64,000 bases of DNA from a virus (Duplodnaviria > Caudoviricetes). Position 1 is the stretch's first letter. Each line of letters starts with the position of its first letter. A program made the position numbers and the translations under genes. The notes beneath the pieces were generated by a model that was not told the DNA's origin, ran no database searches, and saw nothing but the letters and a program-made list of their open reading frames with translations. The DNA lies in the IMG/VR virus record IMGVR_UViG_3300046787_000352, positions 2,050 through 66,049 of that record, one strand, 5' to 3'. Below are positions 1,686 to 58,100 of the stretch, piece by piece.

Positions 1686-3248
1686 TTAAATATTTTTTAC
1701 TTCGCTATCGAATAAGCCTACAAGCAATCCGTTGTCGTTCACTTTGGTACTCATAGCTTTGAACAACTTCTTTTCGATAGGGCTTGACTCGATGTGGTGC
1801 ACAGTTACTTTGTCTGAGTCTTGACCTTTACGGTCGGCTCGTGCTATGCACTGGATGTACTGCTCGACGCTCATGAGTGGGCCAAAGAACACAACTGTGT
1901 CTGCTGCTGTCAGCGTGATGCCGTGCGCAGTAGCTTGTGGCTGCATGACCAATACACGAATGGTTGGCGTTGTTTGGAAGTCATTGATGATGCGCCCACG
2001 CTTGCTGGCGCTCACGTCACCGTGAATCTGATCTACGCCGTAGCCCTTCTTCGTCAGGTAGTTCACGATGGTGTCGATACTGCTGCGGAACATAGCGAAG
2101 ATGATGACCTTGCGGCTCGTCTCCTCCAAGATTTCCTCAAGCACAGCCAGTCGTGGGCCAGCGTCGAACTCAACAACTTCTTTGTCATCTGTGTACGCAG
2201 CGCCACAAGAGATTTGTAGCAACTTGTTTACAGCAACACCAGCGTTCACCGCTGTGATCGTCTCGCCTGCGGCAGACACCAGCAACTGTTCTTTCAACAG
2301 CTTGTAGTATTTGTTCTGCTGCGGTGTCATAGGCACCTCACGCGTCACGGTGATGACGGGCGGCAAGTCCAAGCACTGCGACTTAGAAAACCTAATAGCG
2401 GGTTGTAGCGCGGCGAAGACAGTCGTCGTAGCGTCGGGCTTCGCTGCCCACTTGAACATCGTGATCTTGTTCATCACCTTGTCGCGCCACGCAGTAAAGA
2501 ACTTGGGCACGCCTGTTGGGTTCACCAACTTGGCCAAGCCGTACGCATCCACTGGAGACTGCGATGCAGGTGTACCCGTCATCATCCACAAGTACGTCTC
2601 AGGCGTCAGAATTGAATTGAGCGCCTTCCAACGATTTGTTGATGGGTTCTTGTATGCGTTCGCTTCGTCCACGATGACCAGATCAAAACGGCCATCACGA
2701 ATGATCTCGCTGGCAATCAAGTTCAAGCCGTCGTAGTTGGTGATGACCAACTCGTAGTCCTGCTGAATCATCTCGATGCGCCGCGCAGCTTGCGTATGGT
2801 GGGCCACGATCGCACTGCGATGAATCACGCTTGAGTTGATGTCGCCCATCCACGCGCTGTGCATGATTGACAGCGGACACAAGATCAAGACACGGCGAAC
2901 TTCACCACGCTTCATCAAGTAGTCCGCTGCCCACAATGCGCTGAGCGTCTTGCCCGTGCCGGGGTCATTGAACACGAACGCACGACGATACATCGTGAGG
3001 AACGATGCTGTCTCTACTTGGTGGCCCATGGGCTTGTAACGGCCCGGCCAGTCGTAGCGTCTCGTGATTGGCGAGGGGACATTCTTGACCCCAAGGTTGC
3101 GAAGCACACGTGCTTCATCTAGGCCCCAGAACACGGCGACTTCGTACGCTCCATCGTTGAAGCCGAGCACCTTGCTCTTGGGGATGACGCTGTACTTGTC
3201 AGGGTTTCTTGTGCGCAGTACAAGCGCTTTGTCGTCAACTATTTGCAT
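1686..3248 (-). CDS. SNF2-family (SF2) helicase
   Basis: Walker A DPGTGKT, Walker B VIVDEAN, MMTGTP, HGITLTAA, QCIARADRKGQ; start placed at MQIVDDK. Confidence 0.92.
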   Translation of the reverse strand: MQIVDDKALVLRTRNPDKYSVIPKSKVLGFNDGAYEVAVFWGLDEARVLRNLGVKNVPSPITRRYDWPGRYKPMGHQVETASFLTMYRRAFVFNDPGTGKTLSALWAADYLMKRGEVRRVLILCPLSIMHSAWMGDINSSVIHRSAIVAHHTQAARRIEMIQQDYELVITNYDGLNLIASEIIRDGRFDLVIVDEANAYKNPSTNRWKALNSILTPETYLWMMTGTPASQSPVDAYGLAKLVNPTGVPKFFTAWRDKVMNKITMFKWAAKPDATTTVFAALQPAIRFSKSQCLDLPPVITVTREVPMTPQQNKYYKLLKEQLLVSAAGETITAVNAGVAVNKLLQISCGAAYTDDKEVVEFDAGPRLAVLEEILEETSRKVIIFAMFRSSIDTIVNYLTKKGYGVDQIHGDVSASKRGRIINDFQTTPTIRVLVMQPQATAHGITLTAADTVVFFGPLMSVEQYIQCIARADRKGQDSDKVTVHHIESSPIEKKLFKAMSTKVNDNGLLVGLFDSEVKNI

Positions 3249-3591
3249 GGGGTGCCAGTATGTAAACTTCTTCGGAGAACTCTTGGTGGTTGCCTTCGCG
3301 CAGCTCTTTACGTTCAAACAATTCGGAGCCAACAAACCACAGGTCTGAGCCGCTTATGTTTGCGACTTCTTCCATGGTTGCAACACTGCCGTTGAATGCT
3401 GCTGTCCAGATGTCGCGTAACACCTGTGTGCTTGAGCTTCGTATTTGTTTGGCTTGCTCTGATTCTGTTGCACGTACATCTTTGTTTTTTGACATTTCCT
3501 GAAACCTATATTTGTTGTACTCCGCAGCAAACAGTTGGTTGAGTTGCGGCATCATTTGTTTGCGCATGGCGCTCATGGTGAGCGGCGGCAT
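3235..3591 (-). CDS. hypothetical protein, divergent member of the DLW-K-G-W paralogue array
   Basis: SSTQVLRDIWTAAFNG resembles the motif in the three neighbouring genes. Confidence 0.6.
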   Translation of the reverse strand: MPPLTMSAMRKQMMPQLNQLFAAEYNKYRFQEMSKNKDVRATESEQAKQIRSSSTQVLRDIWTAAFNGSVATMEEVANISGSDLWFVGSELFERKELREGNHQEFSEEVYILAPHANS

Positions 3592-4112
3592 TACACGTTC
3601 TCCTTCAAACGCAACCAGATGCGGCTGTGCTTTTCCATTTGCTCAAAGCATTTGTTGTTGGTGAGACGCACTTGAATCTCGCCGTAGATGTCGTCCTCTG
3701 CGTAAGTTTGATGCGCTCGAACCCACGCATCGCCGTGCTTGGCCCTCCACAGATCAACGGCTGTTGATAGTGAAACAGAATAAGCGTTGTCGTTGTTGGG
3801 GTCGTACGCGTCAGCGATGGCCTGCATACGTGCCTCCTCCTGTTGCTTCTGGTAGCGCTCGATCATGCGCCACTGCGAGTCCGCATCCATCTCCTCCCAA
3901 ACACGTTGTGCGTTGGGGTCTTGCGCTATCTCGTCATACAACGGTACAGGTATGTCGCTCCCCCGTGGCGCTGGTCGAGACATCGGCCGCAGACCCTGCG
4001 GCGCTTGTTGGTATCCGTTGCCATACATACCCCGTGGGTCGTTCCACCCATGTGATGCGTGCTGCGCTGCTTGTTGCGCGGCGTTGTTCCATGCGTTGTT
4101 AAGTGCGCTCAT
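3591..4112 (-). CDS. hypothetical protein, DLW-K-G-W paralogue
   Basis: AYSVSLSTAVDLWRAKHGDAWV; RBS GGGAGG before ATG 4112. Confidence 0.65.
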   Translation of the reverse strand: MSALNNAWNNAAQQAAQHASHGWNDPRGMYGNGYQQAPQGLRPMSRPAPRGSDIPVPLYDEIAQDPNAQRVWEEMDADSQWRMIERYQKQQEEARMQAIADAYDPNNDNAYSVSLSTAVDLWRAKHGDAWVRAHQTYAEDDIYGEIQVRLTNNKCFEQMEKHSRIWLRLKENV

Positions 4113-4444
4113 ACTTCCTCCCGCAACTTGCGCCATTCGCAGGTCATGTCGTCTTCGAGCATGTGATACTCACGCAGTCGGTACTGAATTAATTCCCACG
4201 TCTCACCATCATCTAGGATGGTTTCATGCACCCACTGCCTGCCAAACTTTGATAGCCACAAGTCGCGCAGTGTTTCGATCGGTGTGTTGTATAGCTCTAC
4301 GTTGTTCGGGTTACTTCCGTCCACCTCTGGCGGTTCTTCCTCATAGACGATTGCCATGGACTTGGCGTACACCTCGGGGCTAATACCGAGCCGCTGAGCG
4401 ACAGCTATCTGCGCTGAGTTAAGTATGATTTTTTTGGTAGTCAT
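4109..4444 (-). CDS. hypothetical protein: scaffold-like N-terminal motif fused to a DLW-K-G-W domain
   Basis: KKIILNSAQIAVAQRLGISPEVYA plus YNTPIETLRDLWLSKFGRQWV; RBS AGGAGAAG. Confidence 0.7.
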   Translation of the reverse strand: MTTKKIILNSAQIAVAQRLGISPEVYAKSMAIVYEEEPPEVDGSNPNNVELYNTPIETLRDLWLSKFGRQWVHETILDDGETWELIQYRLREYHMLEDDMTCEWRKLREEV

Positions 4445-4463
4445 TTGCTTCTCCTGTTGAAAT

Positions 4464-4853
4464 TTATGCTGGCTTGCGACACACGTACGTTGCGCGGTCT
4501 GTCAAGTAATGCTGCTCTACATGGCCTAGCTGTTTAAGTCGCTCACATGCGACTTGCCAGAACCTATCGTCATGAATGGCTGTTAAGTCCACCCACTCGT
4601 TACCCCACTTCGCTAACCACAAGTCACACAGCGTTTGAGGTGAGGTGTTGTACGCCTCGTTCTCTTTCAGCTCGATGCTGTTGGTGTGGTTGCGGATTGC
4701 GGCTGTTGAAGCCCCGAAGGGGCCACCTTGATGCGATGCTGTGTTGTTGATACTGAGCGGTGTGATTGTGCTGGGTGAAGTTGTCATCACCCACGAGCCA
4801 GCAGGCATAGCAGTACCGATCTCCTGCGCCGTAACGCCTATATGCGTGCTCAC
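4464..4853 (-). CDS. hypothetical protein, DLW-K-G-W paralogue
   Basis: AYNTSPQTLCDLWLAKWGNEWV. Confidence 0.65.
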   Translation of the reverse strand: MSTHIGVTAQEIGTAMPAGSWVMTTSPSTITPLSINNTASHQGGPFGASTAAIRNHTNSIELKENEAYNTSPQTLCDLWLAKWGNEWVDLTAIHDDRFWQVACERLKQLGHVEQHYLTDRATYVCRKPA

Positions 4854-5083
4854 TTCTTGTCTCCGCGATTGGCCTTCACGCTACGCACACGCAGGTTCGA
4901 CTTCGCTGACGTGCCGCCGCTCTTGAGTGGTTTGATGTGGTCAACATCTTTACCATCGCCTTTGTGCACGGCACCGCTTTTCTCCATGATGCGTCGTGCC
5001 TTGACGCGCTCAGCGCGTTTGGCGATCTGCTCTGGCTTGCCGTGAAAGTCTTTGTATTCCTGTTTGTAGTCGCGTGTTGCCAT
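4850..5083 (-). CDS. small HNH endonuclease-like protein
   Basis: DVDHIKPLKSGG...NLRV...NRG HNH core. Confidence 0.8.
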   Translation of the reverse strand: MATRDYKQEYKDFHGKPEQIAKRAERVKARRIMEKSGAVHKGDGKDVDHIKPLKSGGTSAKSNLRVRSVKANRGDKK

Positions 5084-5092
5084 GATGGCTCC

Positions 5093-5761
5093 TTAGTGCT
5101 TGGGGTTGAACTCGCAGCCGGTGACCTGACACCATTTGCATAGAGGGGTTTGATTGGGGTTCCACACGTTGTTGGCAAAGCTGGCTTCAAGCCGCGCTGT
5201 GCGCTCACGGTACTTCCACCACGCAGCGTCTGCTTGCTCACGCATCATCTGCATCTTGACTATATCGTTCTTGACGATGAACAGCAACGCTGAGTTGACC
5301 TTGCGGATGTGCGGGAAGTGAGCGAATACCATGATCGACATGAGCACCAACTGATCGCGGTCTGGGTACTTGTTGTTGCCTGTCTTCCAGTCGCCCACCC
5401 ACGCAGTGAGGTTGTCATCATTCACGATCAAGATGTCAGCGATGCCGCGCACCCACACGTCGGGGGACTTCCACTCGCAGGGGTTCAGGTTCACGTCCAA
5501 CGCCATCTCATACTCGGCGAGCTTGCGCCCTTCTTTCTGAATCATGGCGTCGGCCACATCCTTGAACTGAGCGTGCTCAGGAGGGATAGGTTTGCCATCG
5601 CGGATGTACAGCTCCAAGCTCTCGTGCACTTGGTTACCGTAACGTGTTGCCTCAGTCTCTTGGAAGGGGTACTTCTTCAAGACCTTGACCTCGTGGTAAC
5701 GCCGAGCGCAACCCTCAAAGTCTTTTAAGGAGCTGTGGCTCCATGCTGGTTTCTTACTCAT
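5093..5761 (-). CDS. PD-(D/E)xK exonuclease (Cas4/RecB-like, probable Fe-S staple)
   Basis: RGIAD...GDWKTG...QL motifs; N-terminal Cys plus C-terminal CKWCQVTGC. Confidence 0.85.
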   Translation of the reverse strand: MSKKPAWSHSSLKDFEGCARRYHEVKVLKKYPFQETEATRYGNQVHESLELYIRDGKPIPPEHAQFKDVADAMIQKEGRKLAEYEMALDVNLNPCEWKSPDVWVRGIADILIVNDDNLTAWVGDWKTGNNKYPDRDQLVLMSIMVFAHFPHIRKVNSALLFIVKNDIVKMQMMREQADAAWWKYRERTARLEASFANNVWNPNQTPLCKWCQVTGCEFNPKH

Positions 5762-5996
5762 GTTTTTCCCAAACGCGTTTGTATAAAAGAAAGTAGTTCA
5801 GCGCTTTTTGTAGCGTTGTGAACGAGCAATAAGGTGATGACGCACGGGGAGGCTTTATGTACCACTCTCGATCTTCACGATCTTGGTAGCAGTCCCAACC
5901 CGCATACTCGAACAACATCTTTATCGCTTCGTCGTCCAGCTCAGAATCGGGCTGATCGGACTGCATTGCTGAGCCTTGTTGAAAACGCATCGACAA
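5754..5996 (-). CDS. hypothetical protein
   Basis: ORF fills the gap between coupled genes; start uncertain. Confidence 0.45.
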   Translation of the reverse strand: MSMRFQQGSAMQSDQPDSELDDEAIKMLFEYAGWDCYQDREDREWYIKPPRASSPYCSFTTLQKALNYFLLYKRVWEKHE

Positions 5997-6243
5997 ACTT
6001 CTCGTTGGCTTCGAGCTTGCTGCCCATGTCTTCGAGAATGGCGTGAGTCAACTCGTGCCAGAAGGTTGTGTCAATTTCTTTCTCTGGCAGTGGGCGACCC
6101 AACGAGTTGTGTGTGCCGATACGGATGTCGGCTTCGTCGTAGTTGATACCACCCCACACGTGCTTGCCGTTGATCTTGTGCGTAAGACGCTTGGTGACCG
6201 TGTACCACTTCTTGCCGACTTTAATTTTCTTTGGTAGTTGCAT
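5941..6243 (-). CDS. small HExxH metallopeptidase-like protein
   Basis: TTFWHELTHAIL...NEKFVD; RBS AGGAGAG. Confidence 0.7.
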   Translation of the reverse strand: MQLPKKIKVGKKWYTVTKRLTHKINGKHVWGGINYDEADIRIGTHNSLGRPLPEKEIDTTFWHELTHAILEDMGSKLEANEKFVDAFSTRLSNAVRSARF

Positions 6244-6253
6244 TGCTCTCTCC

Positions 6254-8233
6254 TTAATTTTTTGCTAACCCATACCTACGGTGCGCACCACCGTCAGCGT
6301 CCAGAGGGATGCCCTGCATGTAGCTTGGCTCCATGGTCATCTGCGCCAAGACCCAAGTCTTAGCGTCAGCAACTTCTGCATCTGGCACAACCGAAATCAA
6401 TTCGTCGTGCACGGTGCCTTTGACGGGATAGCGTTTGTTCACACGCAGCATCCCATCGGTCATCACAATCCGCGCTGTACCTTGCACCACGTTGTTCGTG
6501 ATCTTGCCTGCGTACAGCTTGGTAGCGTCGGGGCCATAAACCCATTGCGGCCTACCCTTCTCGTCCTTTTCTTGGCGTAGGTTCTTATAGAACACGCTCA
6601 TACCGTTCGGTAGGACAATCTCTTCTTTGCGGAAGGTGATACATTTATAACTGAATTCGTTGCCTAAGTAAAGGCTTCGATGAATCAATTCACCGCACAT
6701 GTCCCAAAAAGCAACAACGGGGTACGCTGTGGCACGGTACTTGTCGATGATCGCCTTGGCCGCCACGCAGTGAATCAACAGCTCCTCGTCTGTGCACACG
6801 CGGGGTATCTCCTCCATCTTCTTGATGTTGTCCTCGTTGTTCAAGAAGCTGTCGATGTACTTCGACGTGACGCCGAGCGCTTTGGCGAAGTCTTTTTTGT
6901 ATCGTACAGGCGGTGCTCCAAGGAAGCCCACCAAGAGTTGCGCTGAGAACGATGCCCAACCAAGGCCATACCCGCAACCAAGCAACGCGCTTTTCGCGGA
7001 CTGCCGTAGGTCTGGGTGAGATTCTTTACTGAGTCCGGGTATGTTGAACATCTGAGCGCCGAACGCCGCATAAGGGTCACCCCCTTCTTTGAAGATGCGC
7101 AACATGTCGTGGTAATCCGCCAGCCACGCAAGCACTCGTGGCTCAATCTGCGAGAGGTCGCCCACCACGAGCTGGTGCCCAGCGGGAGCCATAATTGCTT
7201 TACGAAGGAACGAACCTCGCTTGAGGTTCTGCATGTTGATGGCACTGCCCTTGGACGCTGTCCATCGCCCCGAGAGAGCGCCGTAATACGAGAGCGGTAC
7301 AGGTAACGGGCCGCGTCGGGAGATGTCAAGAAAGCGCTGCGCTCGCGTGCGCTCAGTCGTTGACTTAACTTTAAGGCGAGCCTCGCAAAGTAGGGCGACA
7401 TCTTCATTTTCGCCGTTGAGCATTGCTTGGAAGTGCGCGTCAGTCTTTGCAAGCGCAAGAGTCTGCTTGCCGGTGGTTTTGCTTTTCTTAGTCGGCGCAA
7501 CAACGCCAAGAGATTTAAGAATCGCCTCGAAGTTTTTGTTCGACGCAAGCGCAGCTTCTTCCACGCCGAGCTTTTTAAGTAGGGCTTCACGTGATTCCTT
7601 TTCTGAGTGGAGCGCATCCACCAACATATTGCTGTCAAGTTCAAGAACAGGGTTCGTGAACATCTTTAAGGTCATGTCGATAAGGCGGAGTTCCTTAGAC
7701 GGGTAGCCAACAACAAGACGCTTGAAGATTTCTTCACACAAGAACACGTCGTGCATGCAGTAGTCCGCAAGTTCTTTCTCAATCTGCGGCGTGAGTTCCG
7801 TGAGGCCGTCCGTGGTATGCACGGCCTTGCCCTTCGCTGGGAGCCCGTACTTTTCTGCAAGGGTGGCGAGACTGTTGCCTGCGACAAGAAGCCCTTCGGA
7901 GATGTTGCGTGCACGTGCCATGCTAAGGCTATCGAAAATAAAGCAAGGATGAACGTCGTAAACCCACTCAAGAATGGAAACGTCAAACTGAGCATTGTGA
8001 GCAAGCACAGCAGTGCTGCTCCAATCGTAAGTTGAAAGGATGCGCGGGAGCTCCTCATGGCTGTACCACTGGATGATCTTGTCTGTGCCGTACTCATGGA
8101 TGCAGGCTCCGAAGGCTTTGAATTGTGGGTCACGTATGTACTCCTCTGTTGTCATCTTACGTAGGGTGTAGCCCGAGCTGTCCCACCGAGTTTCAAAGTC
8201 GATGGTCAGCAGTGTTTTGTATGGGGCGCTCAA
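6254..8233 (-). CDS. polA: DNA polymerase family A (3'-5' exonuclease plus polymerase)
   Basis: ExoI TIDFET, AHNAQFD; motif A GDLSQIEPRVLAW; motif B RQSAKSALLGCGYG; motif C TVHDEL. Confidence 0.95.
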   Translation of the reverse strand: MSAPYKTLLTIDFETRWDSSGYTLRKMTTEEYIRDPQFKAFGACIHEYGTDKIIQWYSHEELPRILSTYDWSSTAVLAHNAQFDVSILEWVYDVHPCFIFDSLSMARARNISEGLLVAGNSLATLAEKYGLPAKGKAVHTTDGLTELTPQIEKELADYCMHDVFLCEEIFKRLVVGYPSKELRLIDMTLKMFTNPVLELDSNMLVDALHSEKESREALLKKLGVEEAALASNKNFEAILKSLGVVAPTKKSKTTGKQTLALAKTDAHFQAMLNGENEDVALLCEARLKVKSTTERTRAQRFLDISRRGPLPVPLSYYGALSGRWTASKGSAINMQNLKRGSFLRKAIMAPAGHQLVVGDLSQIEPRVLAWLADYHDMLRIFKEGGDPYAAFGAQMFNIPGLSKESHPDLRQSAKSALLGCGYGLGWASFSAQLLVGFLGAPPVRYKKDFAKALGVTSKYIDSFLNNEDNIKKMEEIPRVCTDEELLIHCVAAKAIIDKYRATAYPVVAFWDMCGELIHRSLYLGNEFSYKCITFRKEEIVLPNGMSVFYKNLRQEKDEKGRPQWVYGPDATKLYAGKITNNVVQGTARIVMTDGMLRVNKRYPVKGTVHDELISVVPDAEVADAKTWVLAQMTMEPSYMQGIPLDADGGAHRRYGLAKN

Positions 8234-24591: not shown

Positions 24592-25212
24592 TTGTTTGAA
24601 GATTTGGTGCAATTTAATCCGGAACCCACACCGTCTGGAAACTTCAAGCCCATCGACGAGATGGGGCCAGCTACCGTGCTTGACGCACAGGTGGCTACAG
24701 CTGATTGGCTGGAAGAGATCGGCGCGCCTCCCGATGAGGACGCCCACGCAGAGGCAACGCAAAAGTTGGCCCGGGCTGCGTTCACCGCCATGATTACTGA
24801 CTCGGACGAGGGCACACAGCGCAAAGCGCTCACCACCCTGAAGACACCCGAGGCGGTAAGACACATCACCGGCATGCTGGCAGCCTACGACTGGGAATTT
24901 GTCGAGCAGGCCAAAGAGCTCCGCGGCTACGCCGTGGCGCAAATCTTCGAAGAGACCAAACACCCCGACGCCAAGATTCGACTCAAAGCACTTGAGATGC
25001 TGGGCAAGGTCACGGAAGTGGCGCTGTTCACGGAACGCGTTGAGGTCAAGAAGGCTGAGATGAGCGACCACGAGCTCGAGGCCAAGATCAAAGAGAAGCT
25101 GAACAAGTTCATGAAGGTCGTGGACGTGGTCGATGTAAGGGACGTGTCAGAAGACACCCCGGCCGAAGACCCCACCCCCGCACTCCCCAAACCAGAAACG
25201 GACGACGAGTGA
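24592..25212 (+). CDS. terS: putative terminase small subunit
   Basis: Directly upstream of and overlapping terL; HPDAKIRLKALEMLGK...FTERVEV motif; TTG start after AGGAG (the ORF track starts at 24490). Confidence 0.6.
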   Translation: MFEDLVQFNPEPTPSGNFKPIDEMGPATVLDAQVATADWLEEIGAPPDEDAHAEATQKLARAAFTAMITDSDEGTQRKALTTLKTPEAVRHITGMLAAYDWEFVEQAKELRGYAVAQIFEETKHPDAKIRLKALEMLGKVTEVALFTERVEVKKAEMSDHELEAKIKEKLNKFMKVVDVVDVRDVSEDTPAEDPTPALPKPETDDE

Positions 25213-26750
25213 ACCTTGACGCCCTGACCACGCTTAGTAAGGAGGAGCTATTGGCTCTCCAAAAGGCGTTGCCGACAATGTCGCTCCAAGACAAGATGGA
25301 GCTGTTCGACATGTTGGAGGTGCGCGAGAAGCGCGCCAGCCTGGCGGCCGCCCAAGGGAACATGCTCGGGTTCGCCAACGCCGTCTACCCAGGATTCAAG
25401 GTCGGGCCGCACCACAGGAAGCTGGCCAAGATTTTCCAAGACGTGATCGACGGCAAGAAGAAGCGCGTCATCATCAACATCGCGCCGCGTATGGGCAAGT
25501 CTGAGTTTAGCTCCTACCTGTTCCCAGCGTACTTCCTAGGTAATAACCCTAACAAGAAGATCATCATGGGCACGCACACGGCGGGCCTGTCCGAAGACTT
25601 CGGTCGACGGATTCGAAACCTGCTCGACTCGGAGGAGTACCGTGAAGTTTTCCCCAACACGCAGGTGGCGGCCGACCAGAAGGCTGCTGGTAAATGGTCT
25701 ACAAGCGCTGGCGGTCAGTACTATGCTGCTGGTGTCGGCGGTGCTCTTGCTGGTCGTGGTGCTGACTTGTTCGTTATTGATGACCCGCACTCGGAACAGG
25801 ATGTAAAGACAAACTCGCGCCTGGCGTTCGACACGGCGTGGTCGTGGTTCCAGACTGGCCCCTTGCAGCGTTTGATGCCGGGCGGCGCGATCATAGTCAT
25901 CATGACGCGGTGGAGTCTGCTGGACCTGACCGGCCGGCTGATCGACTACCAGATGAAGAACCCGAACGCGATTCCATGGGAGATCGTGGAGCTGCCAGCC
26001 ATTCTGAACGAGGACACCGAGAACGAGAAATCACTCTGGCCGGAGCAGTGGCCACTGGCGTCCTTGAAGTCGACGAAGGCTTCGCTGGACCCACAGTATT
26101 GGAACGCGCAGTACATGCAGCAGCCCACATCGGACTCAGCTGCCATCGTGTCGAGAAAGAGCTGGCGCATTTGGGAGAGCGACGAGCCGCCCAAGTGTGA
26201 GTACGTCATCCAGAGCTGGGACACGGCCTTTGAAGCCAAGACCCGGTCGGACTATTCTGCGTGCACCACGTGGGGCGTCTTCTATAACGAGGAAGAGAAT
26301 CACACACCGCAGGTCATCTTGCTGGACGCGTTCAAGGACCGCATGGAGTTTCCTGAGCTCAAGGCCGTGGCGCTGAAACACTACCGCGAGTGGGAGCCAG
26401 ATGCGTTCGTGGTTGAAAAGAAAGCCGCCGGCGCGCCCCTCATCCAAGAGCTCAAGAACATGGGCATCTTCGTCCAAGAATTTACACCGAGCCGCGGAAA
26501 CGATAAGATCGTGCGTATGAACGCAGTGGCTGACTTGTTCTACTCAGGTAAAGTCTGGGCACCCGACACGCGCTGGGCGCGCGAAGTGATCGAAGAAGTT
26601 GCGTCGTTTCCGAACGGCGAGCACGACGACTACGTGGACACGACATCCCAAGCATTGCTGCGTTTCAGGCAAGGTGGTTTCATTCCGTTGGACTCCGACG
26701 AGCGTGACGAACCGACATTCTTCAAACGCAAAACTCACGCGTACTACTAG
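25209..26750 (+). CDS. terL: terminase large subunit
   Basis: NIAPRMGKS (Walker A), GRGADLFVIDDP, MTRW, YMQQP, SWDTA, HDDYVD nuclease motif. Confidence 0.96.
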   Translation: MNLDALTTLSKEELLALQKALPTMSLQDKMELFDMLEVREKRASLAAAQGNMLGFANAVYPGFKVGPHHRKLAKIFQDVIDGKKKRVIINIAPRMGKSEFSSYLFPAYFLGNNPNKKIIMGTHTAGLSEDFGRRIRNLLDSEEYREVFPNTQVAADQKAAGKWSTSAGGQYYAAGVGGALAGRGADLFVIDDPHSEQDVKTNSRLAFDTAWSWFQTGPLQRLMPGGAIIVIMTRWSLLDLTGRLIDYQMKNPNAIPWEIVELPAILNEDTENEKSLWPEQWPLASLKSTKASLDPQYWNAQYMQQPTSDSAAIVSRKSWRIWESDEPPKCEYVIQSWDTAFEAKTRSDYSACTTWGVFYNEEENHTPQVILLDAFKDRMEFPELKAVALKHYREWEPDAFVVEKKAAGAPLIQELKNMGIFVQEFTPSRGNDKIVRMNAVADLFYSGKVWAPDTRWAREVIEEVASFPNGEHDDYVDTTSQALLRFRQGGFIPLDSDERDEPTFFKRKTHAYY

Positions 26751-26764
26751 GAAAGATTTAGCAC

Positions 26765-29203
26765 ATGGCCACCAATATCGACAAGGCGCTGTTCCAGCAG
26801 CCTCAAGGTCTCGAAGAACTCGCGCAGGACGAATCGCCGATTGAGATCGAGATCATCGACCCCGAGGAAGTAAAGATCGGCATGGACGGTCTTGAGATCG
26901 ACATCATCCCTGGCGAAGAAACTGACGAAGATTTCAACGAAAACATCGCCGAGCACGTAGACCCTAGTGCCTTGGAGATGCTGTCTGGCGACTTGCTCAG
27001 CGACATCGAGAACGACTTGGCCTCACGCAAGGACTGGGAGAAAGCCTACGTGGAGGGTATCAAGCTCTTGGGTTTGCAGTACGAGGAGCGCACCGAGCCT
27101 TGGAACGGTGCCTGCGGCGTCTTCCACCCGATGATTACAGAGGCTGTGGTCAGGTTCCAGTCAGAGACCATCACAGAGACCTTCCCAGCCCAAGGCCCCG
27201 TGCGCACCAAGATTCTTGGCAAAGAGACACCGACCAAGCAAGAAGCCGCGGTCCGAGTCGAGACCGACATGAACTACCAGTTGACTGAGACCATGGTCGA
27301 GTTCCGTCCTGAGCACGAGCGCATGCTGTGGTCATTGCCGGCCACGGGCTCTGCGTTCAAGAAGGTCTACTTCGACCCAAGCCTTGATCGCCAGACTTCG
27401 ATCTTCATCCCAGCCGAGGACATGATCTTGCCTTACGGCACGTCGGACATCCAGTCGTGCTACCGCGTCACGCACCGCATGCGCAAGACCGAGAACGACC
27501 TCGTGAAGTTGCAGCGCGCGGGCTTCTACTTGGACGTGGAGCTCCCAGACCCAAGCAAAGAGTCGAACGACATCCGCAAGGCCAAGGACAAAGAGACAGG
27601 TTTCAGCGACCTGAACGACGAGCGCTTCGAGATTTACGAGTGCCACGTGGACTTGGATTTGAAGGGCTACGAGGATAAAGACGCAGACGGCGAACCCACG
27701 GGCATCGCTCTGCCGTACGTCGTCACCATGTTGAAAACTGACGGAACCATCTTGGCCATCCGTCGTAACTGGAAGGAAGATGATGAGCTGCGCCTCAAGC
27801 GACAACACTTCGTGCACTACCAGTACATTCCTGGTTTCGGTGCCTATGGCTTCGGTCTGTTCCATCTCATCGGAGGCTACGCCAAGTCGGCCACCAGCAT
27901 CATGCGTCAGTTGGTGGACGCTGGAACGTTGTCTAACTTGCCCGGCGGTCTCAAGTCACGGGGACTTCGCATCAAGGGTGATGACACTCCAATTGCACCG
28001 GGCGAGTGGCGCGATGTAGACATCGGCTCTGGCGCCATGCGCGACAACATCTTGCCGCTGCCTTACAAGGAGCCATCTGGCGTCTTGGCCGCATTGATGG
28101 ACAAGATTGTGGAGGAAGGCCGTCGCTTCGCTTCCACAGCGGACACGAACATCTCCGACATGAGTGGCCAGGCCCCAGTGGGCACGACCCTTGCTTTGTT
28201 GGAGCGTCAGCTGAAAGTCATGACGGCCGTGCAGGCGCGCGTGCACTACGCCTTGAAGCAAGAACTTCAGTTGTTGGCTGAGATCATCCGCGACTACAGC
28301 GACGACGAGTACAACTACGAGCCAGAGAGCGGCAGCCCGCGCGCGAAGAAGTCTGACTACAACCACGTCGACATCATCCCCGTGAGCGACCCCAATGCTG
28401 CGACCATGTCACAGCGCGTTGTGCAGTACCAAGCCGTGATTCAGATGGCCCAGATGGCGCCTGACATTTACGACCTGCCCCAGTTGCATCGCAAGATGCT
28501 TGAGGTGCTGGGCATCAAGAACGCAGACAAGCTCGTGCCTTTGGAAGACGACCAAAAGCCCAAGGACCCAGTGTCCGAAAACATGGCTTTGCTCAAGAAC
28601 GAGCCGGTCAAGGCGTTCATGTACCAAGACCACGAGTCGCACATCAAGGTGCACATGTCGGCTATGCAAGACCCCAACATCATGCAGCTGGTTGGTCAAA
28701 GCCCCAAGGCTGCCCAGATTCAAGCGGCTGCCATGGCGCACATAGCTGAGCACGTTGGCTTTGCGTACCGTCAGAAGATCGAGCAGCAGATGGGCGTGGC
28801 GTTGCCACCCGAGGACGAGAAGCTCCCACCAGAAGTCGAGTTGGCTTTGTCGAGCATGATGGCCCAGGCCGCGCAGCAGGTGTTGCAGCAGAGCCAAGCA
28901 CAGCAGGCTCAGCAACAAGCACAGCAGCAACAGCAAGACCCAGTGGTGCAGATGCAGCAACAAGAGTTGCAGCTCAAGGACCGCGAAGTTGCCGTCAAAG
29001 AGCAAAAGCTCAAGATCGACGCAGCCGCGCAGGCAGACAAGTTGCAGTTGGAGGAGAAGAAGCTGGCTGTCATGGCCGCCGGCCAAGCCGACAAACTCCA
29101 AGCTGACCAAGAACGAGACGGTGTCCGCATGGGCATCGAGATCGCACGAAGCCGCCAGGAGAAGGCGAAGCCACAACAACCACAGGAGAAGCCAGCTAAA
29201 TGA
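26765..29203 (+). CDS. portal protein (P22-like, Q-rich C-terminal barrel)
   Basis: Follows terL; GSAFKKVYFD, YGFGL, LPYKEPS, APVGTTLALLE; long Gln-rich coiled coil. Confidence 0.9.
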   Translation: MATNIDKALFQQPQGLEELAQDESPIEIEIIDPEEVKIGMDGLEIDIIPGEETDEDFNENIAEHVDPSALEMLSGDLLSDIENDLASRKDWEKAYVEGIKLLGLQYEERTEPWNGACGVFHPMITEAVVRFQSETITETFPAQGPVRTKILGKETPTKQEAAVRVETDMNYQLTETMVEFRPEHERMLWSLPATGSAFKKVYFDPSLDRQTSIFIPAEDMILPYGTSDIQSCYRVTHRMRKTENDLVKLQRAGFYLDVELPDPSKESNDIRKAKDKETGFSDLNDERFEIYECHVDLDLKGYEDKDADGEPTGIALPYVVTMLKTDGTILAIRRNWKEDDELRLKRQHFVHYQYIPGFGAYGFGLFHLIGGYAKSATSIMRQLVDAGTLSNLPGGLKSRGLRIKGDDTPIAPGEWRDVDIGSGAMRDNILPLPYKEPSGVLAALMDKIVEEGRRFASTADTNISDMSGQAPVGTTLALLERQLKVMTAVQARVHYALKQELQLLAEIIRDYSDDEYNYEPESGSPRAKKSDYNHVDIIPVSDPNAATMSQRVVQYQAVIQMAQMAPDIYDLPQLHRKMLEVLGIKNADKLVPLEDDQKPKDPVSENMALLKNEPVKAFMYQDHESHIKVHMSAMQDPNIMQLVGQSPKAAQIQAAAMAHIAEHVGFAYRQKIEQQMGVALPPEDEKLPPEVELALSSMMAQAAQQVLQQSQAQQAQQQAQQQQQDPVVQMQQQELQLKDREVAVKEQKLKIDAAAQADKLQLEEKKLAVMAAGQADKLQADQERDGVRMGIEIARSRQEKAKPQQPQEKPAK

Positions 29204-29400
29204 TTTCCGAATTCGCACGCGTACTGCGCGAACAAGTACGCCAAGATATGAACAACTACTGTGACGACCTCGCCAGCGGGGTCTGCCAGTCGTTCGACCA
29301 GTATCAAAAACTCTGCGGTGTGATTCAGGGTCTTGCTATCGCAGAGCAATACATCATCGACCTTGCAAAGAAAGTGGAGAAAGCAAATGACGAATCCTAA
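29200..29400 (+). CDS. small conserved head-module protein
   Basis: YQKLCGVIQGL motif; lies between portal and GroES. Confidence 0.7.
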   Translation: MISEFARVLREQVRQDMNNYCDDLASGVCQSFDQYQKLCGVIQGLAIAEQYIIDLAKKVEKANDES

Positions 29401-29836
29401 CGAAGCGGGTCTCATCCTGCCGCCAGGTATCGCGCTACCAGCGCACATTCAACCGGTCGACGAGCCGGACGAGGGTGCTGACAACGAAACCAAAGCAGGT
29501 GCACTGCCAACGCCAACAGGTTGGAAGCTGCTCTGTGTGGTCCCAGAAGTGGACGAGAAGATTGCGGGCACGTCCCTCGATCTGGTTCGTGACGCTGCAA
29601 GCATGCGTAATGAAGAGCACGGCACCACCGTGCTGTTCGTGCTGCGTGTGGGTCCAGACGCGTACAAAGACACAACCAAGTTTCCGGGCGGTGCCTGGTG
29701 CAAGGAAGGTGACTTCGTGCTCGTGCGTACGTATTCCGGTACGCGTTTCAAAATTTTCGGAAAAGAATTCCGCCTGCTCAATGACGATCAGGTAGAAGCT
29801 GTTGTGCAAGACCCCCGCGGTATCACCCGCGCTTAA
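29387..29836 (+). CDS. groES: GroES-like co-chaperonin
   Basis: PTGWKLL...VLRVGPDAY...KEGDFVL...YSGTRFKIFGKEFRLLNDDQVEAVV. Confidence 0.85.
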   Translation: MTNPNEAGLILPPGIALPAHIQPVDEPDEGADNETKAGALPTPTGWKLLCVVPEVDEKIAGTSLDLVRDAASMRNEEHGTTVLFVLRVGPDAYKDTTKFPGGAWCKEGDFVLVRTYSGTRFKIFGKEFRLLNDDQVEAVVQDPRGITRA

Positions 29837-29845
29837 GGAGAAACT

Positions 29846-30814
29846 ATGAGCCTGAACGACGAGTTCGAGTTCCCGGACGAGATCGAAGAGAAGAAAGCCG
29901 CCACCGGCGGTGAAATCAAATCGACCGAATCCGACGACTTCGAGATTGAAATTGTTGACGACACCCCCGCGCAAGACCGTGGCCGCAAGCCGCTGGAGCG
30001 CGAGGTAGCCGACCCATCGGAAGATGAGATCGAGTCGTACTCTGATGGTGTGAAGAAACGCATCAAGGAGTTAACACATGCGCGCCACGACGAGCGTCGC
30101 GCTAAAGAGGCCATCCTCCGAGAGAAGGAAGAGCTGGAGCGGGTCACACAACAGCTGATTGACGACAACAAGCGTCTCAAGCAGAACCTGCACAACGGCA
30201 CCGAGCAGTTCATGACACAAGCCAAAACACTGGCCGAGTCAGAGCTGGAGGCAGCCAAGCGCAAGTACAAGGAAGCTCACGAGGCGTTTGATGCGGATGC
30301 TATGGTTGAGGCGCAAGCCGCGATGATGGCAGCTCAAATGAAAATGGCTGATGCAAATAAATTTAAGCCAACCCCTTTACAAGAGCGTGAAGTTGAGGTA
30401 CAAACTAGCCATCGCGAACCCCAACGCGTGCAACCGGACGAAAAAACCTTGCGCTGGCAAGCTAAAAACCAGTGGTTCGGTGCTGCGGGGTACGAAGAAG
30501 TTACCAGCTACGCGCTAGGGCTGCACCAAAAGCTAGTGAACTCAGGCATCACTCCCGCGAGTGAGGTCTATTTCGAGCAGATTGATGCTCGCATGAAGTC
30601 AAAGTTCCCTGAGATTCTCGGGGCCGACGAAGACAAGCCACGTACAAGTGAAGTCTCCAAGAAACCAGCGACGGTTGTTGCAGGTGCTACGCGCTCTACG
30701 GGCGCGAAAAAAATCCAGTTGACATCAACGCAGGTTGCCCTTGCGAAGAAGTTTGGACTTACCCCTCAACAATATGCCGCCGAATTGGCAAAAATGGAGA
30801 AATCAAATGGCTGA
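29846..30814 (+). CDS. capsid scaffolding protein
   Basis: Acidic N-terminus, long coiled coil, C-terminal LTSTQVALAKKFGLTPQQYA helix-turn-helix; upstream of the MCP. Confidence 0.75.
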   Translation: MSLNDEFEFPDEIEEKKAATGGEIKSTESDDFEIEIVDDTPAQDRGRKPLEREVADPSEDEIESYSDGVKKRIKELTHARHDERRAKEAILREKEELERVTQQLIDDNKRLKQNLHNGTEQFMTQAKTLAESELEAAKRKYKEAHEAFDADAMVEAQAAMMAAQMKMADANKFKPTPLQEREVEVQTSHREPQRVQPDEKTLRWQAKNQWFGAAGYEEVTSYALGLHQKLVNSGITPASEVYFEQIDARMKSKFPEILGADEDKPRTSEVSKKPATVVAGATRSTGAKKIQLTSTQVALAKKFGLTPQQYAAELAKMEKSNG

Positions 30815-55074: not shown

Positions 55075-55166
55075 CCCACTTATGTGAGAGAATTCTCCAC
55101 ACAGCGCCTCAGTCTTACCCGCTGGGGCGTTTGCACATTTGATGGGTTACTTTCTGCTGATTGACT

Positions 55167-58100
55167 ATGGCCAAATTCCTGCCCCTGCCTAACGGTTCTA
55201 AACTCGAAGTGCCACCTGGCATGTCTGACGATGAGGCCATGCGCCTTGCGCGCAAGCAGTTCCCGGACCTTTTCCCCAAACAAGGCGGCGTAATGGGGGC
55301 CGTGGGCAAAGGCTTCGAGTCAACCTTGTCTGGTATGCAGACGGGTATTGGTGCCCTGTTTAATCCAGAAGAAGCAGCTCGCGCAGGTGCAGAGCGTGGC
55401 CAAGACATCAACAGCCGCTACGCTGAAGAAGTCAGCTTCGACAAAGTCCGTGAAGCCTACGATAAGAACGGCATCCTCTCCGCCGCGCGCGAAGCGCTTG
55501 GTCAAGTTCCCAAAGCAATCGCTGAGCAAGCACCCAATATGGCTGCCACACTTGGCAGTGCGCGCCTCGGCGCCATGGCGGGTTCACTTGCAGGCCCAGC
55601 AGGTACAGTCGTTGGTGGTGTGGCCGGTGCGCTGGCCCCGTCCCTCTTGCAGCAGTTCGGTGGCAACATTGAGCGTCAACAGGCCGAAGGCGTCCCAATC
55701 AATCGTGGTGCTGCCGCTGCGGCCGCAGTCCCCCAAGCCGCGCTGGATGCCGCTGGTACCTTTATTCCTTTGGGTGGCCAACTGGTAAGCAAGCTGACAG
55801 GCATCCCAATCAAGGGTCTGGCCAACAAGGGTGCAGCCAAACTGGCTGACGAGTCTCTCAAGAAGACGTTGCTCAAAGGTACGGCCGTTGGCGCCTTGGC
55901 TGAAATCCCCACCGAAATCACACAGCAGATGCTTGAGCGCGCGCAAGCCGGCCTGTCCTTGACCAGCCCAGACGCTCTGAAAGAATACGGCGAGACCGCA
56001 TACCAAGTTGGTCTGTTGGCGCCCATCGGTGCCGTCGGTCGCTTCTCGGAGAAGGGCGCAGCCCGCCAACAAATCGCTGACGAGCAAGACGCCAAAGACA
56101 TTGCCGCTGCGGCCGCCGAGGAAGAACGCAAGAACCAGCCCGAGTATTTGCAGAAGCTGTCGGCCGACTTCACCGCTGCGCGTTCACAGATGCAGGACCT
56201 CAACGACCGCATCGACGCAGCCGCCCCACCCAAGAAGCCCGGCAAGAACGCCAAGCCCGAAACAATTCAGGCGTACAAGGCCGCGCGCGCAGCGTATACC
56301 CCTGCTCAGGAAGCCGAGTACAACGAAGCCAAGATGGCCAAGGACGAACTGCTGGGCACCTTCGCCCCACTGCGTGACGAGTTCAATGCGCGCCGCGACC
56401 AGATCAACGAGATGGAGCAGCAGCGCATGAGCGCCATGGAGCAGGAGACTGCCCAGAATCAACCGACAGCCGCCGGAGCAATCCCCAACGCTGACCCACA
56501 ACGAAACGTCGTTGACCTCATGCAGCGTCACGACGCCATGGGTACTCAGCTGGATGACCTGCAAACACAAGCCGCAGAAGCAGCGAAGGCTGGCGACACG
56601 GCCACCATCCTGTCTTTGACTCCGCAGATCAACGCGCTCAAACAAAAGCAAGCCAGCGCGGCCGAGATCATCACACAGATGGGCGGTTCTACCGCCCCAA
56701 CAAAAGAACTGGCCGTCATCGCCGAGAAACAGTTGGCCGATGCACAAGCCAAGATGCTCGCGACACAAAAGGAGCTCATCAAAGCCGCTGAGCTAGGCGA
56801 TACCGCTGCGACCGAGAAGTTGGCTAAGCAGTTTGATGCAGAGAAGCTGAACATTCAAGCGCTGCAAGACAAGACTGCCAAGCAAATGCAGTTGCGCACA
56901 GTTGCTGAAACACCCGCCGGTGAAACGCCAGGCATGTTCGGCGCCCAAGAGAAGCCAGATGAAGTGAAAGCCACTGAGGTCTTGAAAGGCGAAGCCGAGC
57001 GCGGTCTCTATGGCCCAGAAAGCAAAGCCGAGTCGGCCAAGCAAGCGTTCACCGAAGCAGAAGTTGGCCCACGTGGCCAGCTCGAAACTGCACCTGTGAT
57101 GCAGAAGGTCAAGAAAGACAAGGATACGCTCGCCCTGTTCGGTAAAGAGAACCTCGTCAAGACCACGCTGGCTAACCGCGAGTTTGAAAATGGCCCGTAC
57201 AAAGAAGTCACACTGGACGAGCAAGGTCAGCGCAACGTCGAGCGTGAGCGCGTCTTGCGTTTGTTGGAAGACCGTTTTGGTTTGGGCGGCGAAGACAAGA
57301 TCACCGAAGGTCCGTTCAAAGGCGAGACCACGCGCAGCGTGCAGTCCACCCGCATGTATGAGCACCCCATGTTCAAAAAGACCATGGAAGAGATTCAGAA
57401 GCACAAGGACAAGGTCGAAAAGAAGCAGCGCAACGCCAAGAAGTCTTTGTTGGACCAGCTGTATGAGCACGCCAATACATACAACTACATCCACGAGCTG
57501 CAAGGTGGCAACAAGAAGACCGGCGCAGCCGAGTCTCCAATCGCTGCTGTCGCTGACCAACTGGTGAACTTGGCTCCTCCTGCGCAATTCGTTGCGGGTT
57601 TGGAGAAGAAGACACCATACACGTTGGGTCTTGCCAAAAAATCGGCTCTGACAAAATACGAAGCGGTGTTGGCCAAGATCGAGATGGAGCGCAACGCCAT
57701 CGAGAAGCTGTACAAGAACTTGCACAGCGCAGTCGTGAAGATCACCCCACTTGAGAAAGTGGAGTCTGTGCGACAGAAGAAAAAGGACCTGTTGGCTGCA
57801 CAACCAAAGCCCGTCGTGTCGAAGGCCGCCAAGGAAGTCAAGCGCATCAACGAAGGTGACGTGGCCAAAGAAGCGTCTGAGACGCAGACCATGCGTGACT
57901 TGGCCTACATGCTCGGCATGGACACAGACGTGTACGCTCGCGCCAAGAAGCAGCTCGCACAGCGTGGCAAGAAGATTGCCGACCAGCACACCAAGGACTC
58001 AAACGAGTATCGTGAGTTCATCGACTTGGCTCGCCCAGACCTGCGCAACATTGCTGAGCGTGAAGGCGCCAAGACAGACGAGTACAAAGAAGCGCTGGCC

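Follow-up and report, generated by a model that had tools for sequence, protein, structure and literature searches.

The locus examined here raises the question of why a small gene among the replication genes of a tailed phage should begin with what looks like the end of a head-assembly protein. The gene encodes 111 amino acids (aa) and lies on a 64,000-nucleotide (nt) stretch of DNA, the window of this study, which comprises bases 2050-66049 of the 66,049-bp IMG/VR virus record IMGVR_UViG_3300046787_000352 (Caudoviricetes), judged complete. Its product consists of an N-terminal module, an acidic linker and a C-terminal domain called DLW (Table 1). A first-pass annotation, made from the sequence alone, had reported that the N-terminus of this protein aligns without gaps to the C-terminus of a putative scaffold protein of 322 aa, encoded in the structural arm of the genome. 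Both open reading frames (ORFs) exist and the alignment was reproduced: residues 4-30 of the 111-aa protein pair with scaffold residues 288-314, with 12/27 identical and 20/27 positive residues and a BLOSUM62 score of 67. Elsewhere in the window's six-frame translation no 27-mer scores above 28, and none of 300 shuffled peptides reached 67 (maximum 40). When the 111-aa protein was searched against the whole virus record, the scaffold tail was found at E 8.3e-4. A hidden Markov model (HMM) built from 14 scaffold tails alone had two matches in the record, the scaffold tail itself (86.2 bits) and the N-terminus of the 111-aa protein (27.3 bits, E 3.5e-7).

The same relation was found between the two families. 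In hhalign, the motif-bearing DLW subfamily matched an alignment of 21 scaffolds with a probability of 97.5% (E 8.3e-12) over 31 columns, 4-34 of the former falling on 288-318 of the latter. The invariant or nearly invariant columns coincide, L8, A16, G20 and Y26/A27 of the DLW subfamily corresponding to L12, A20, G24 and Y30/A31 of the tails, and they are equally spaced (8-4-6-1) in both alignments. AlphaFold2 (AF2) models place a helix-turn-helix (HTH) in matching register in both proteins, each beside a disordered linker, with predicted local distance difference test (pLDDT) values of only about 67-77; the second helix is acidic or neutral, not basic. The motif stands at the N-terminus of a coiled-coil-free protein of 111 aa, versus the C-terminal end of a long coiled-coil protein in the scaffold. 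The DNA encoding the two motifs is identical in 42 of 78 aligned columns (54%), so that the duplication is not recent and the copy is old. Judged from these alignments, the likeness to the scaffold tail is homologous and not a matter of chance.

The N-terminal module is also the best-conserved part of the 111-aa protein, with a mean pairwise identity of 91% among ten close homologues compared with 74-77% for the rest. These ten homologues come from metagenomes and are 72-79% identical to the protein, for which 11 clusters exist in all. Neither Pfam (no family at E<=0.1) nor PHROG has a family for the protein, a blastn search with positions 3000-6500 found no direct relatives in the phage collection, and the ESM Atlas gave nothing above 0.78. 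A tblastn search of the phage collection with the 111-aa protein gave just three matches, to Gordonia phages at E=6, which were rejected as relatives. Contigs from RNA libraries cover the neighbouring genes; the sole one touching the 111-aa ORF (151 nt) enters it by 18 nt, too little to count.

The stop codon of the gene overlaps, as ATGA (4109-4112), the ATG that is the start of the adjacent gene dlwB in the nearest relative, viral record G001. This arrangement suggests translational coupling, and also that dlwB is shorter (173 aa) than the longest ORF call. A 106-nt contig from a mine-drainage metagenome covers the motif-coding region (window positions 4338-4443) with five differences, so close relatives of the gene occur outside the habitat label of the source sample.

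The DLW domain, to which the first-pass annotation had also drawn attention, is real and is common to the 111-aa ORF and the two ORFs flanking it, dlwA and dlwB. A wide VIA-align search over 48,161 solved chains returned winged-helix structures in almost all of its top 50 rows; since the best Z was only 5.1 (root-mean-square deviation 3.1, 58 aligned residues), the domain is termed winged-helix-like and no more. Foldseek gave nothing at E<=0.001 against PDB and BFVD, and Pfam scans of 14 family members gave nothing credible. Derivation of the domain from residues 53-105 of the major capsid protein (MCP) was considered and rejected (hhalign probability 0.15%, E 0.38). When 1.84 billion representatives were searched with a family profile, 335 members emerged at E<=0.001, and the counts given below refer to the best 150 of them.

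The position and predicted architecture of the 322-aa protein point to a scaffold. In the AF2 model (mean pLDDT 72.5) a disordered acidic N-terminus is followed by very long helices at residues 67-146 and 150-172, and the C-terminal part has a disordered segment (260-286), a strand (289-293) and two helices (294-302 and 307-321). None of the records of distant relatives with conserved gene order annotates its homologue as a scaffold. The literature found never gives the homologue that name; the paper on phage CRP-901 does not contain the word 'scaffold', and no paper on Pag-Yong1 was found. The tail is conserved in every scaffold homologue examined. A tail profile searched against 177,635 PDB sequences had 12 matches (E 0.009-2.1), with no scaffold protein among them. 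Ten clusters of 164-aa proteins (P0330-P0339), on contigs of up to 19.8 kb, are collinear with scaffold residues 172-322 approximately. They may not be truncated gene calls but a scaffold that is naturally shorter, or split, in some lineage.

Sister genes copying capsid-protein segments

The 111-aa gene is one of four tandem paralogs, and among its sister DLW genes three segments of the MCP are copied, residues 1-41, 85-130 and 270-309. The copy in dlwB spans residues 10-40 and corresponds to the final 37 residues of the MCP (Smith-Waterman score 63, z 6.9, 0/300 shuffles; tblastn within the window, E 0.006), and the profile of this C-terminus class aligned to the MCP profile with an hhalign probability of 95.5% (E 1.5e-8). 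In the weakly DLW-like orf118, residues 4-46 match MCP residues 3-41 (Smith-Waterman score 60, z 6.1, 0/300 shuffles). Counterparts of orf118 at other loci are clearer DLW members, and its ortholog in G001 matches the MCP with z 10.0 (hhalign 92.8%, E 4e-7, residues 1-29 on 1-29). Two further loci, L049 (a 23-kb viral fragment) and L189 (a 12-kb metagenome contig), carry at the dlwB position genes that match MCP residues 85-133 (z 9.6 and 5.0, respectively); the profile of the 85-130 class aligned to the MCP profile with a probability of 74.4% (E 2.7e-5). The gene orf106 of L049 starts with a copy of MCP residues 292-303 (z 5.4). Some representatives even have two MCP pieces before the DLW domain, 49-68 together with 280-309 or 1-24 together with 272-300. 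The names 'N-arm' and 'spine helix' used below for MCP segments rest only on the usual order of elements in the HK97 fold, and the MCP profile had no match among PDB sequences. The presence of MCP segments in the sister genes strengthens a link of the 111-aa gene to head assembly.

A specificity control compared the N-terminal regions of 131 representatives having at least 18 residues before the domain (19 of the 150 were dropped) with 12 proteins encoded in the window. There were 21 strong matches (z>=4.5, 0/60 shuffles), of which 13 fell on the MCP, six on the scaffold, one on the portal and one on the DNA polymerase; there were none on the terminase, the Snf2 helicase, the exonuclease, the GroES-like protein, the two ORFs between scaffold and MCP, or two tail-region proteins. 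In a blastp search of the same N-terminal regions against all window ORFs outside the cluster, 10 of 18 matches were to the MCP, six to the scaffold tail and two elsewhere. The copied segments are thus specific to the MCP and the scaffold. Portal and DNA polymerase, matched by one representative each, were treated as background and not as originals. A possible copy of MCP residues 126-203 in dlwA (z 3.5, 2/300 shuffles) was not accepted.

Recurrence of the fusion in a hypervariable island

The first-pass annotation had asked for comparable fusions in relatives, and these were found. The scaffold-tail HMM matches the N-terminus of six of the 150 DLW representatives (22.7-45.6 bits; next best 4.9); the six are 37-42% identical to the 111-aa protein, and their clusters are less than 50% identical to each other. 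In addition, L049 and L189 carry a motif-bearing gene at the identical place. By its distribution, the scaffold-tail fusion is old and recurrent.

The DLW genes occupy an island between conserved exonuclease and Snf2 helicase genes, and this synteny is kept in four loci. The motif-bearing gene is present in three of the four readable DLW clusters; in G001, whose scaffold is 98% identical, dlwA, dlwB and orf118 lie side by side and the 111-aa gene is absent. The island is hypervariable between conserved flanks. Between L049 and L189 the exonuclease is 94.5%, the HNH-like ORF bordering the island 97.8% and the Snf2 helicase 96.3% identical, compared with 64% for dlwA, 43% for the motif gene, 61% for dlwB and 50.5% for the orf118-like gene. 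Between the window and G001 the exonuclease is 99% and the HNH-like ORF 97% identical, versus 73% for dlwA, 63% for dlwB and 70% for the orf118-like gene.

In 5/5 isolate phages and in 30/30 further related viral records the tail profile found the scaffold tail only, bar one trivial extra 11-residue match. DLW genes occur in none of the five isolates, and among ten viral records only in G001. In a search for short non-scaffold proteins carrying the tail (query, scaffold residues 281-322), all 58 matches were collinear C-terminal pieces of scaffolds, and none was a fusion. Scans of viral contigs with the 111-aa protein, P0133, P0135 and P0283 returned no locus usable for co-variation of module and scaffold. 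The scan with P0136 gave one true homologue, on a 23-kb fragment that has no scaffold gene, and the contigs found in a metagenome scan with P0283 were at most 13.5 kb long.

Different fusions resemble different subtypes of tail, which we report as an observation only. The P0135 fusion shares 15/27 residues with the tails of DSL-LC04 and HTVC027P and 9/27 with the window's scaffold; the P0136 fusion has a 15-16/27 match, versus 7-8/27 for DSL-LC04 and HTVC027P. When the L189 gene at 2086-2436 is compared with P0141/P0283, the DLW parts are about 73% identical and the main difference lies in the turn region of the tail-like module, one module being of the window-scaffold subtype and the other of a different one. 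The tail-like module may be exchanged independently of the DLW domain.

Possible roles of the copied head segments

The reading that we favour, with moderate confidence and by analogy with the systems described below, is that the mimicry modules dock the common DLW domain onto partners in head assembly, the 111-aa protein at the site of the scaffold tail. The members of this tandem, fast-evolving early family would each combine an N-terminal copy of a head-protein segment with a flexible linker and the common winged-helix-like domain, and the copied segment would bind whatever its original binds. Binding, partner and consequence are here what we infer. For the module of the 111-aa protein the docking site would be that of the scaffold tail, most likely located on the MCP's inner face or N-arm while the procapsid assembles. 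Once there, the DLW domain would either enter procapsids as a cargo or modulate assembly through competition with the scaffold. The orf118 module copies the MCP N-terminus, to which the scaffold docks in phage 80alpha, and by that analogy the array may imitate both sides of the scaffold-MCP contact. More tentatively, the DLW cluster as a whole could be an unrecognised array of early 'head-mimic adaptors', each displaying on a common domain a different contact segment, from the N-arm, residues 85-130 or the C-terminus of the MCP or from the scaffold tail; these would direct proteins to particular positions on the assembling head, or shield such positions from sensors or rival phages, with modules swapped and diversified in an arms-race island.

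Several known systems bear on this reading. In phage 80alpha (PMC5644958), a terminal motif of the scaffold binds the capsid protein, and the CpmB protein of the satellite SaPI1 shares this motif and competes for the same N-arm site. Like the 111-aa protein, CpmB is a second, unrelated small protein with the terminal motif of a scaffold; its capsid binding is known, and for the 111-aa protein it would follow by analogy. CpmB comes from a satellite, has its motif at the C-terminal end, forms a dimer and redirects capsid size, whereas the 111-aa gene belongs to the phage's own replication module, bears the motif N-terminally on a winged-helix-like domain and has sisters that copy MCP segments. 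The two proteins have no sequence relation. In phage P22, a tethered terminal HTH of the scaffolding protein is indispensable for binding to coat (bioRxiv 10.1101/2022.12.13.520362), and cargo fused to scaffold fragments 141-303 or 238-303 is encapsidated in vivo (PMC9962691). In the tail-profile search of PDB sequences the scaffold tail described here showed no detectable sequence relation to that of P22, and the P22 fusions are man-made, whereas the DLW fusion would be a natural one. Taken together, CpmB and the P22 fusion cargo indicate that a scaffold motif at one terminus suffices to direct a protein to the capsid protein. The internal proteins of T4 offer another comparison: PMC3012670 describes a short N-terminal capsid targeting sequence that loads small, diverse proteins from a polymorphic locus into the prohead. 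The 111-aa protein resembles them in being small, in having a candidate N-terminal address and in lying in a hypervariable island. In T4 the address is constant, the cargo varies and a prohead protease removes the address; in the DLW family the candidate address varies and the domain is constant.

The first-pass annotation had also stated that no described system of this form was known. This held in so far as the entries listed by our literature searches describe no early phage gene with a scaffold tail or pieces of capsid protein, and no array of early genes that copies several capsid and scaffold segments onto one domain; it needs qualifying in that SaPI1 CpmB, the T4 targeting sequence and the P22 fusions are partial precedents. 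Different proteins that share one terminal segment leading into an HK97-fold shell are found in the nested protease and scaffold genes of lambda-, P2- and Mu-like phages and in the cargo-loading peptides of encapsulins. Nested genes share the segment by nested translation, and encapsulins use a short constant peptide. To our knowledge, neither involves a row of early genes with copies of several segments of a capsid protein. The sequences thus point to a family, undescribed so far, of proteins that would imitate head-assembly contacts.

A number of points weigh against docking at head-assembly sites. The scaffold identity of the 322-aa protein is itself something that we infer. The motif is N-terminal in the 111-aa protein and not C-terminal, and the phage's own scaffold tail is not its closest match (12/27, versus 15/27 for the scaffold of record G017). 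Its absence from G001, with a scaffold 98% identical, means that the 111-aa gene is dispensable. A second copy of the motif occurs only in this record among eight viral records (at least 90% complete) and five isolate genomes, most of which have no DLW gene at all. From its location in the replication arm, the protein may be made before heads exist, and the RNA-library contigs hold no evidence of its expression. An HTH combined with a winged-helix-like domain also resembles a DNA-binding regulator, and the copied internal, spine-helix-like MCP segment (85-130) is not obviously able to dock on folded MCP. Finally, the hypervariability of the locus fits a role in an arms race at least as well.

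The last point belongs to the reading that we rank second, in which the fusions act as decoys or antagonists. The copied segments would be epitopes of host capsid-sensing defences, or contact elements in the heads of co-infecting relatives, and the early DLW fusions would occupy or disarm the sensors or competitors. The contrast between flanks 94.5-99% identical and DLW genes at 43-73%, with the 111-aa gene missing from G001, has the appearance of an arms race. The tandem paralogs, the position in the early region and the display of several different MCP segments are in line with such a role, and a precedent exists in T4, whose diverse internal proteins counter defences and are encoded in a polymorphic locus (PMC3012670). 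We nevertheless consider this reading less likely than docking. One would expect a sensor to be activated, not blocked, by a copy of its trigger, and with the MCP 79-99% identical across the group, the head of a competitor could hardly be distinguished from the phage's own. Neither a host nor a defence system is known for the phage, which is uncultured, and the entries listed by the literature searches include no such mechanism.

A markedly less probable alternative is an ordinary regulator of early transcription or replication, in which both domains bind DNA and the likeness to the scaffold tail reflects a shared generic fold. Such a role leaves unexplained the MCP segments that the sisters carry at the same position; these are not HTH pieces, which makes a generic DNA-binding HTH unlikely for the N-terminal module. 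The motif does fit the classical HTH pattern, the C-terminal domain resembles winged-helix domains, many of which bind DNA, and the gene lies among replication genes. Some scaffold tails also match Pfam HTH families below threshold (HTH_Crp_2 in 4/14 tails), the best of these matches having E 0.06 and 13.5 bits where the cut-off is 27. The first-pass annotation had named a generic HTH as the finding that would count against it, but the peptide matches no Pfam family and no curated HTH family reaches threshold. The scaffold-tail match, by contrast, is specific, being the only other match in the genome with a profile-profile probability of 97.5%, and the second helix is not basic. Least probable of all, in our view hardly credible, is that the modules have no function and are fragments of late genes that illegitimate recombination moved into the early region, where they are in frame by accident. 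Phage genomes are mosaic, the 111-aa gene is dispensable in G001 and the RNA-library contigs show no expression of it; yet no other part of the protein is as well conserved among close homologues (91% versus 74-77%), the module retains the invariant residues of the scaffold tail despite divergence to 54% DNA identity, and six clusters with less than 50% mutual identity have it in frame at the N-terminus. A ribosome-binding site and the coupled ATGA junction with the next gene likewise speak against debris.

If the copied segments do work as addresses, as the docking reading would have it, they would represent a natural, modular targeting of proteins to specific contacts of an HK97-fold head. 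The logic would be the reverse of that of the T4 targeting sequence and the encapsulin loading peptides, in that the address varies and the domain is constant. The segments would mark which short stretches of capsid and scaffold are functional contacts in a very abundant group of uncultured freshwater phages that has neither structure nor genetics, and they would be ready-made tags for loading cargo into capsids. If instead they were decoys, they would point to a new principle of counter-defence or of competition between phages.

Genome setting and head-gene arm

The stretch is present in sequencing runs that are freshwater metagenomes, and the genome belongs to a tailed phage; its replication arm runs leftward and its structural arm rightward (Table 1). 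The order portal, GroES-like protein, 322-aa protein, two ORFs and MCP is kept in the distant relatives compared, namely phage 023Pt_psg01, Pelagibacter phage HTVC027P, Roseobacter phage CRP-901, phage DSL-LC04 and Planktothrix phage Pag-Yong1. The GroES-like gene directly precedes the putative scaffold gene, a position that it keeps in 5/5 isolate relatives. Of the 84 window ORFs scanned against PHROGs, none was named as a dedicated prohead protease; the MCP has weak matches there (E 0.00027 and 0.0066) to protease-containing fusion families. The family to which the MCP belongs is very large, with at least 8,000 scored clusters, all at E<=1e-10.

Table 1. Features of the 111-aa gene, the DLW island and the two genome arms, in window positions.
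Feature	Position	Strand	Evidence or remark
111-aa gene (scaffold-tail-like module, acidic linker, DLW domain)	4109-4444	-	ATG start
Shine-Dalgarno-like AGGAG, 6 nt before the ATG at 4444	4451-4455	-	Direct sequence reading
N-terminal module, residues 4-31, scaffold-tail copy	4352-4435	-	Alignments and AF2; predicted helix-turn-helix (helices 10-18, 23-30)
Acidic linker, residues 32-50	4295-4351	-	Predicted disordered; AF2 pLDDT about 48-53
DLW domain, residues 51-111, winged-helix-like	4112-4294	-	Helix-strand-helix-helix-strand-strand; AF2 pLDDT 81-89; family HMM 72.8 bits
Scaffold C-terminal tail, residues 288-318, original of the copied motif	30707-30799	+
dlwA, 129 aa, DLW domain	4464-4853	-	DLW HMM 101.7 bits; N-terminal region without convincing original
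dlwB, longest ORF 181 aa, probable start ATG at 4112	3591-4136	-	Residues 10-40 (4017-4109) copy MCP C-terminus (270-306)
orf118, weakly DLW-like	3235-3591	-	Residues 4-46 (3454-3582) copy MCP N-terminus (3-41); DLW HMM 7.4 bits, E 0.001
HNH-like ORF, 77 aa, borders DLW island	4850-5083	-	phrog_4590; 97-98% conserved versus 43-73% in the island
Snf2 helicase	1686-3335		Replication arm (leftward)
PD-(D/E)XK-type exonuclease	5093-5761		Replication arm
DNA polymerase	6254-8233		Replication arm
Large terminase	25209-26750		Structural arm (rightward)
Portal	26765-29203		Structural arm
GroES-like protein	29333-29836	+	Cpn10 E 0.0047; phrog_3188 E 5.7e-7
Putative scaffold, 322 aa	29846-30814	+	phrog_28737, function unknown
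Two ORFs of unknown function	between putative scaffold and MCP
Major capsid protein (MCP), 309 aa	31907-32836	+	Pfam Phage_capsid_4 E 3.4e-11; PHROG major head protein
2149-aa ORF	55161-61610	+	C-terminal third matches phrog_9854 and phrog_18222

The 2149-aa ORF listed last, whose C-terminal third matches PHROGs of unknown function, may encode a giant virion or internal protein.

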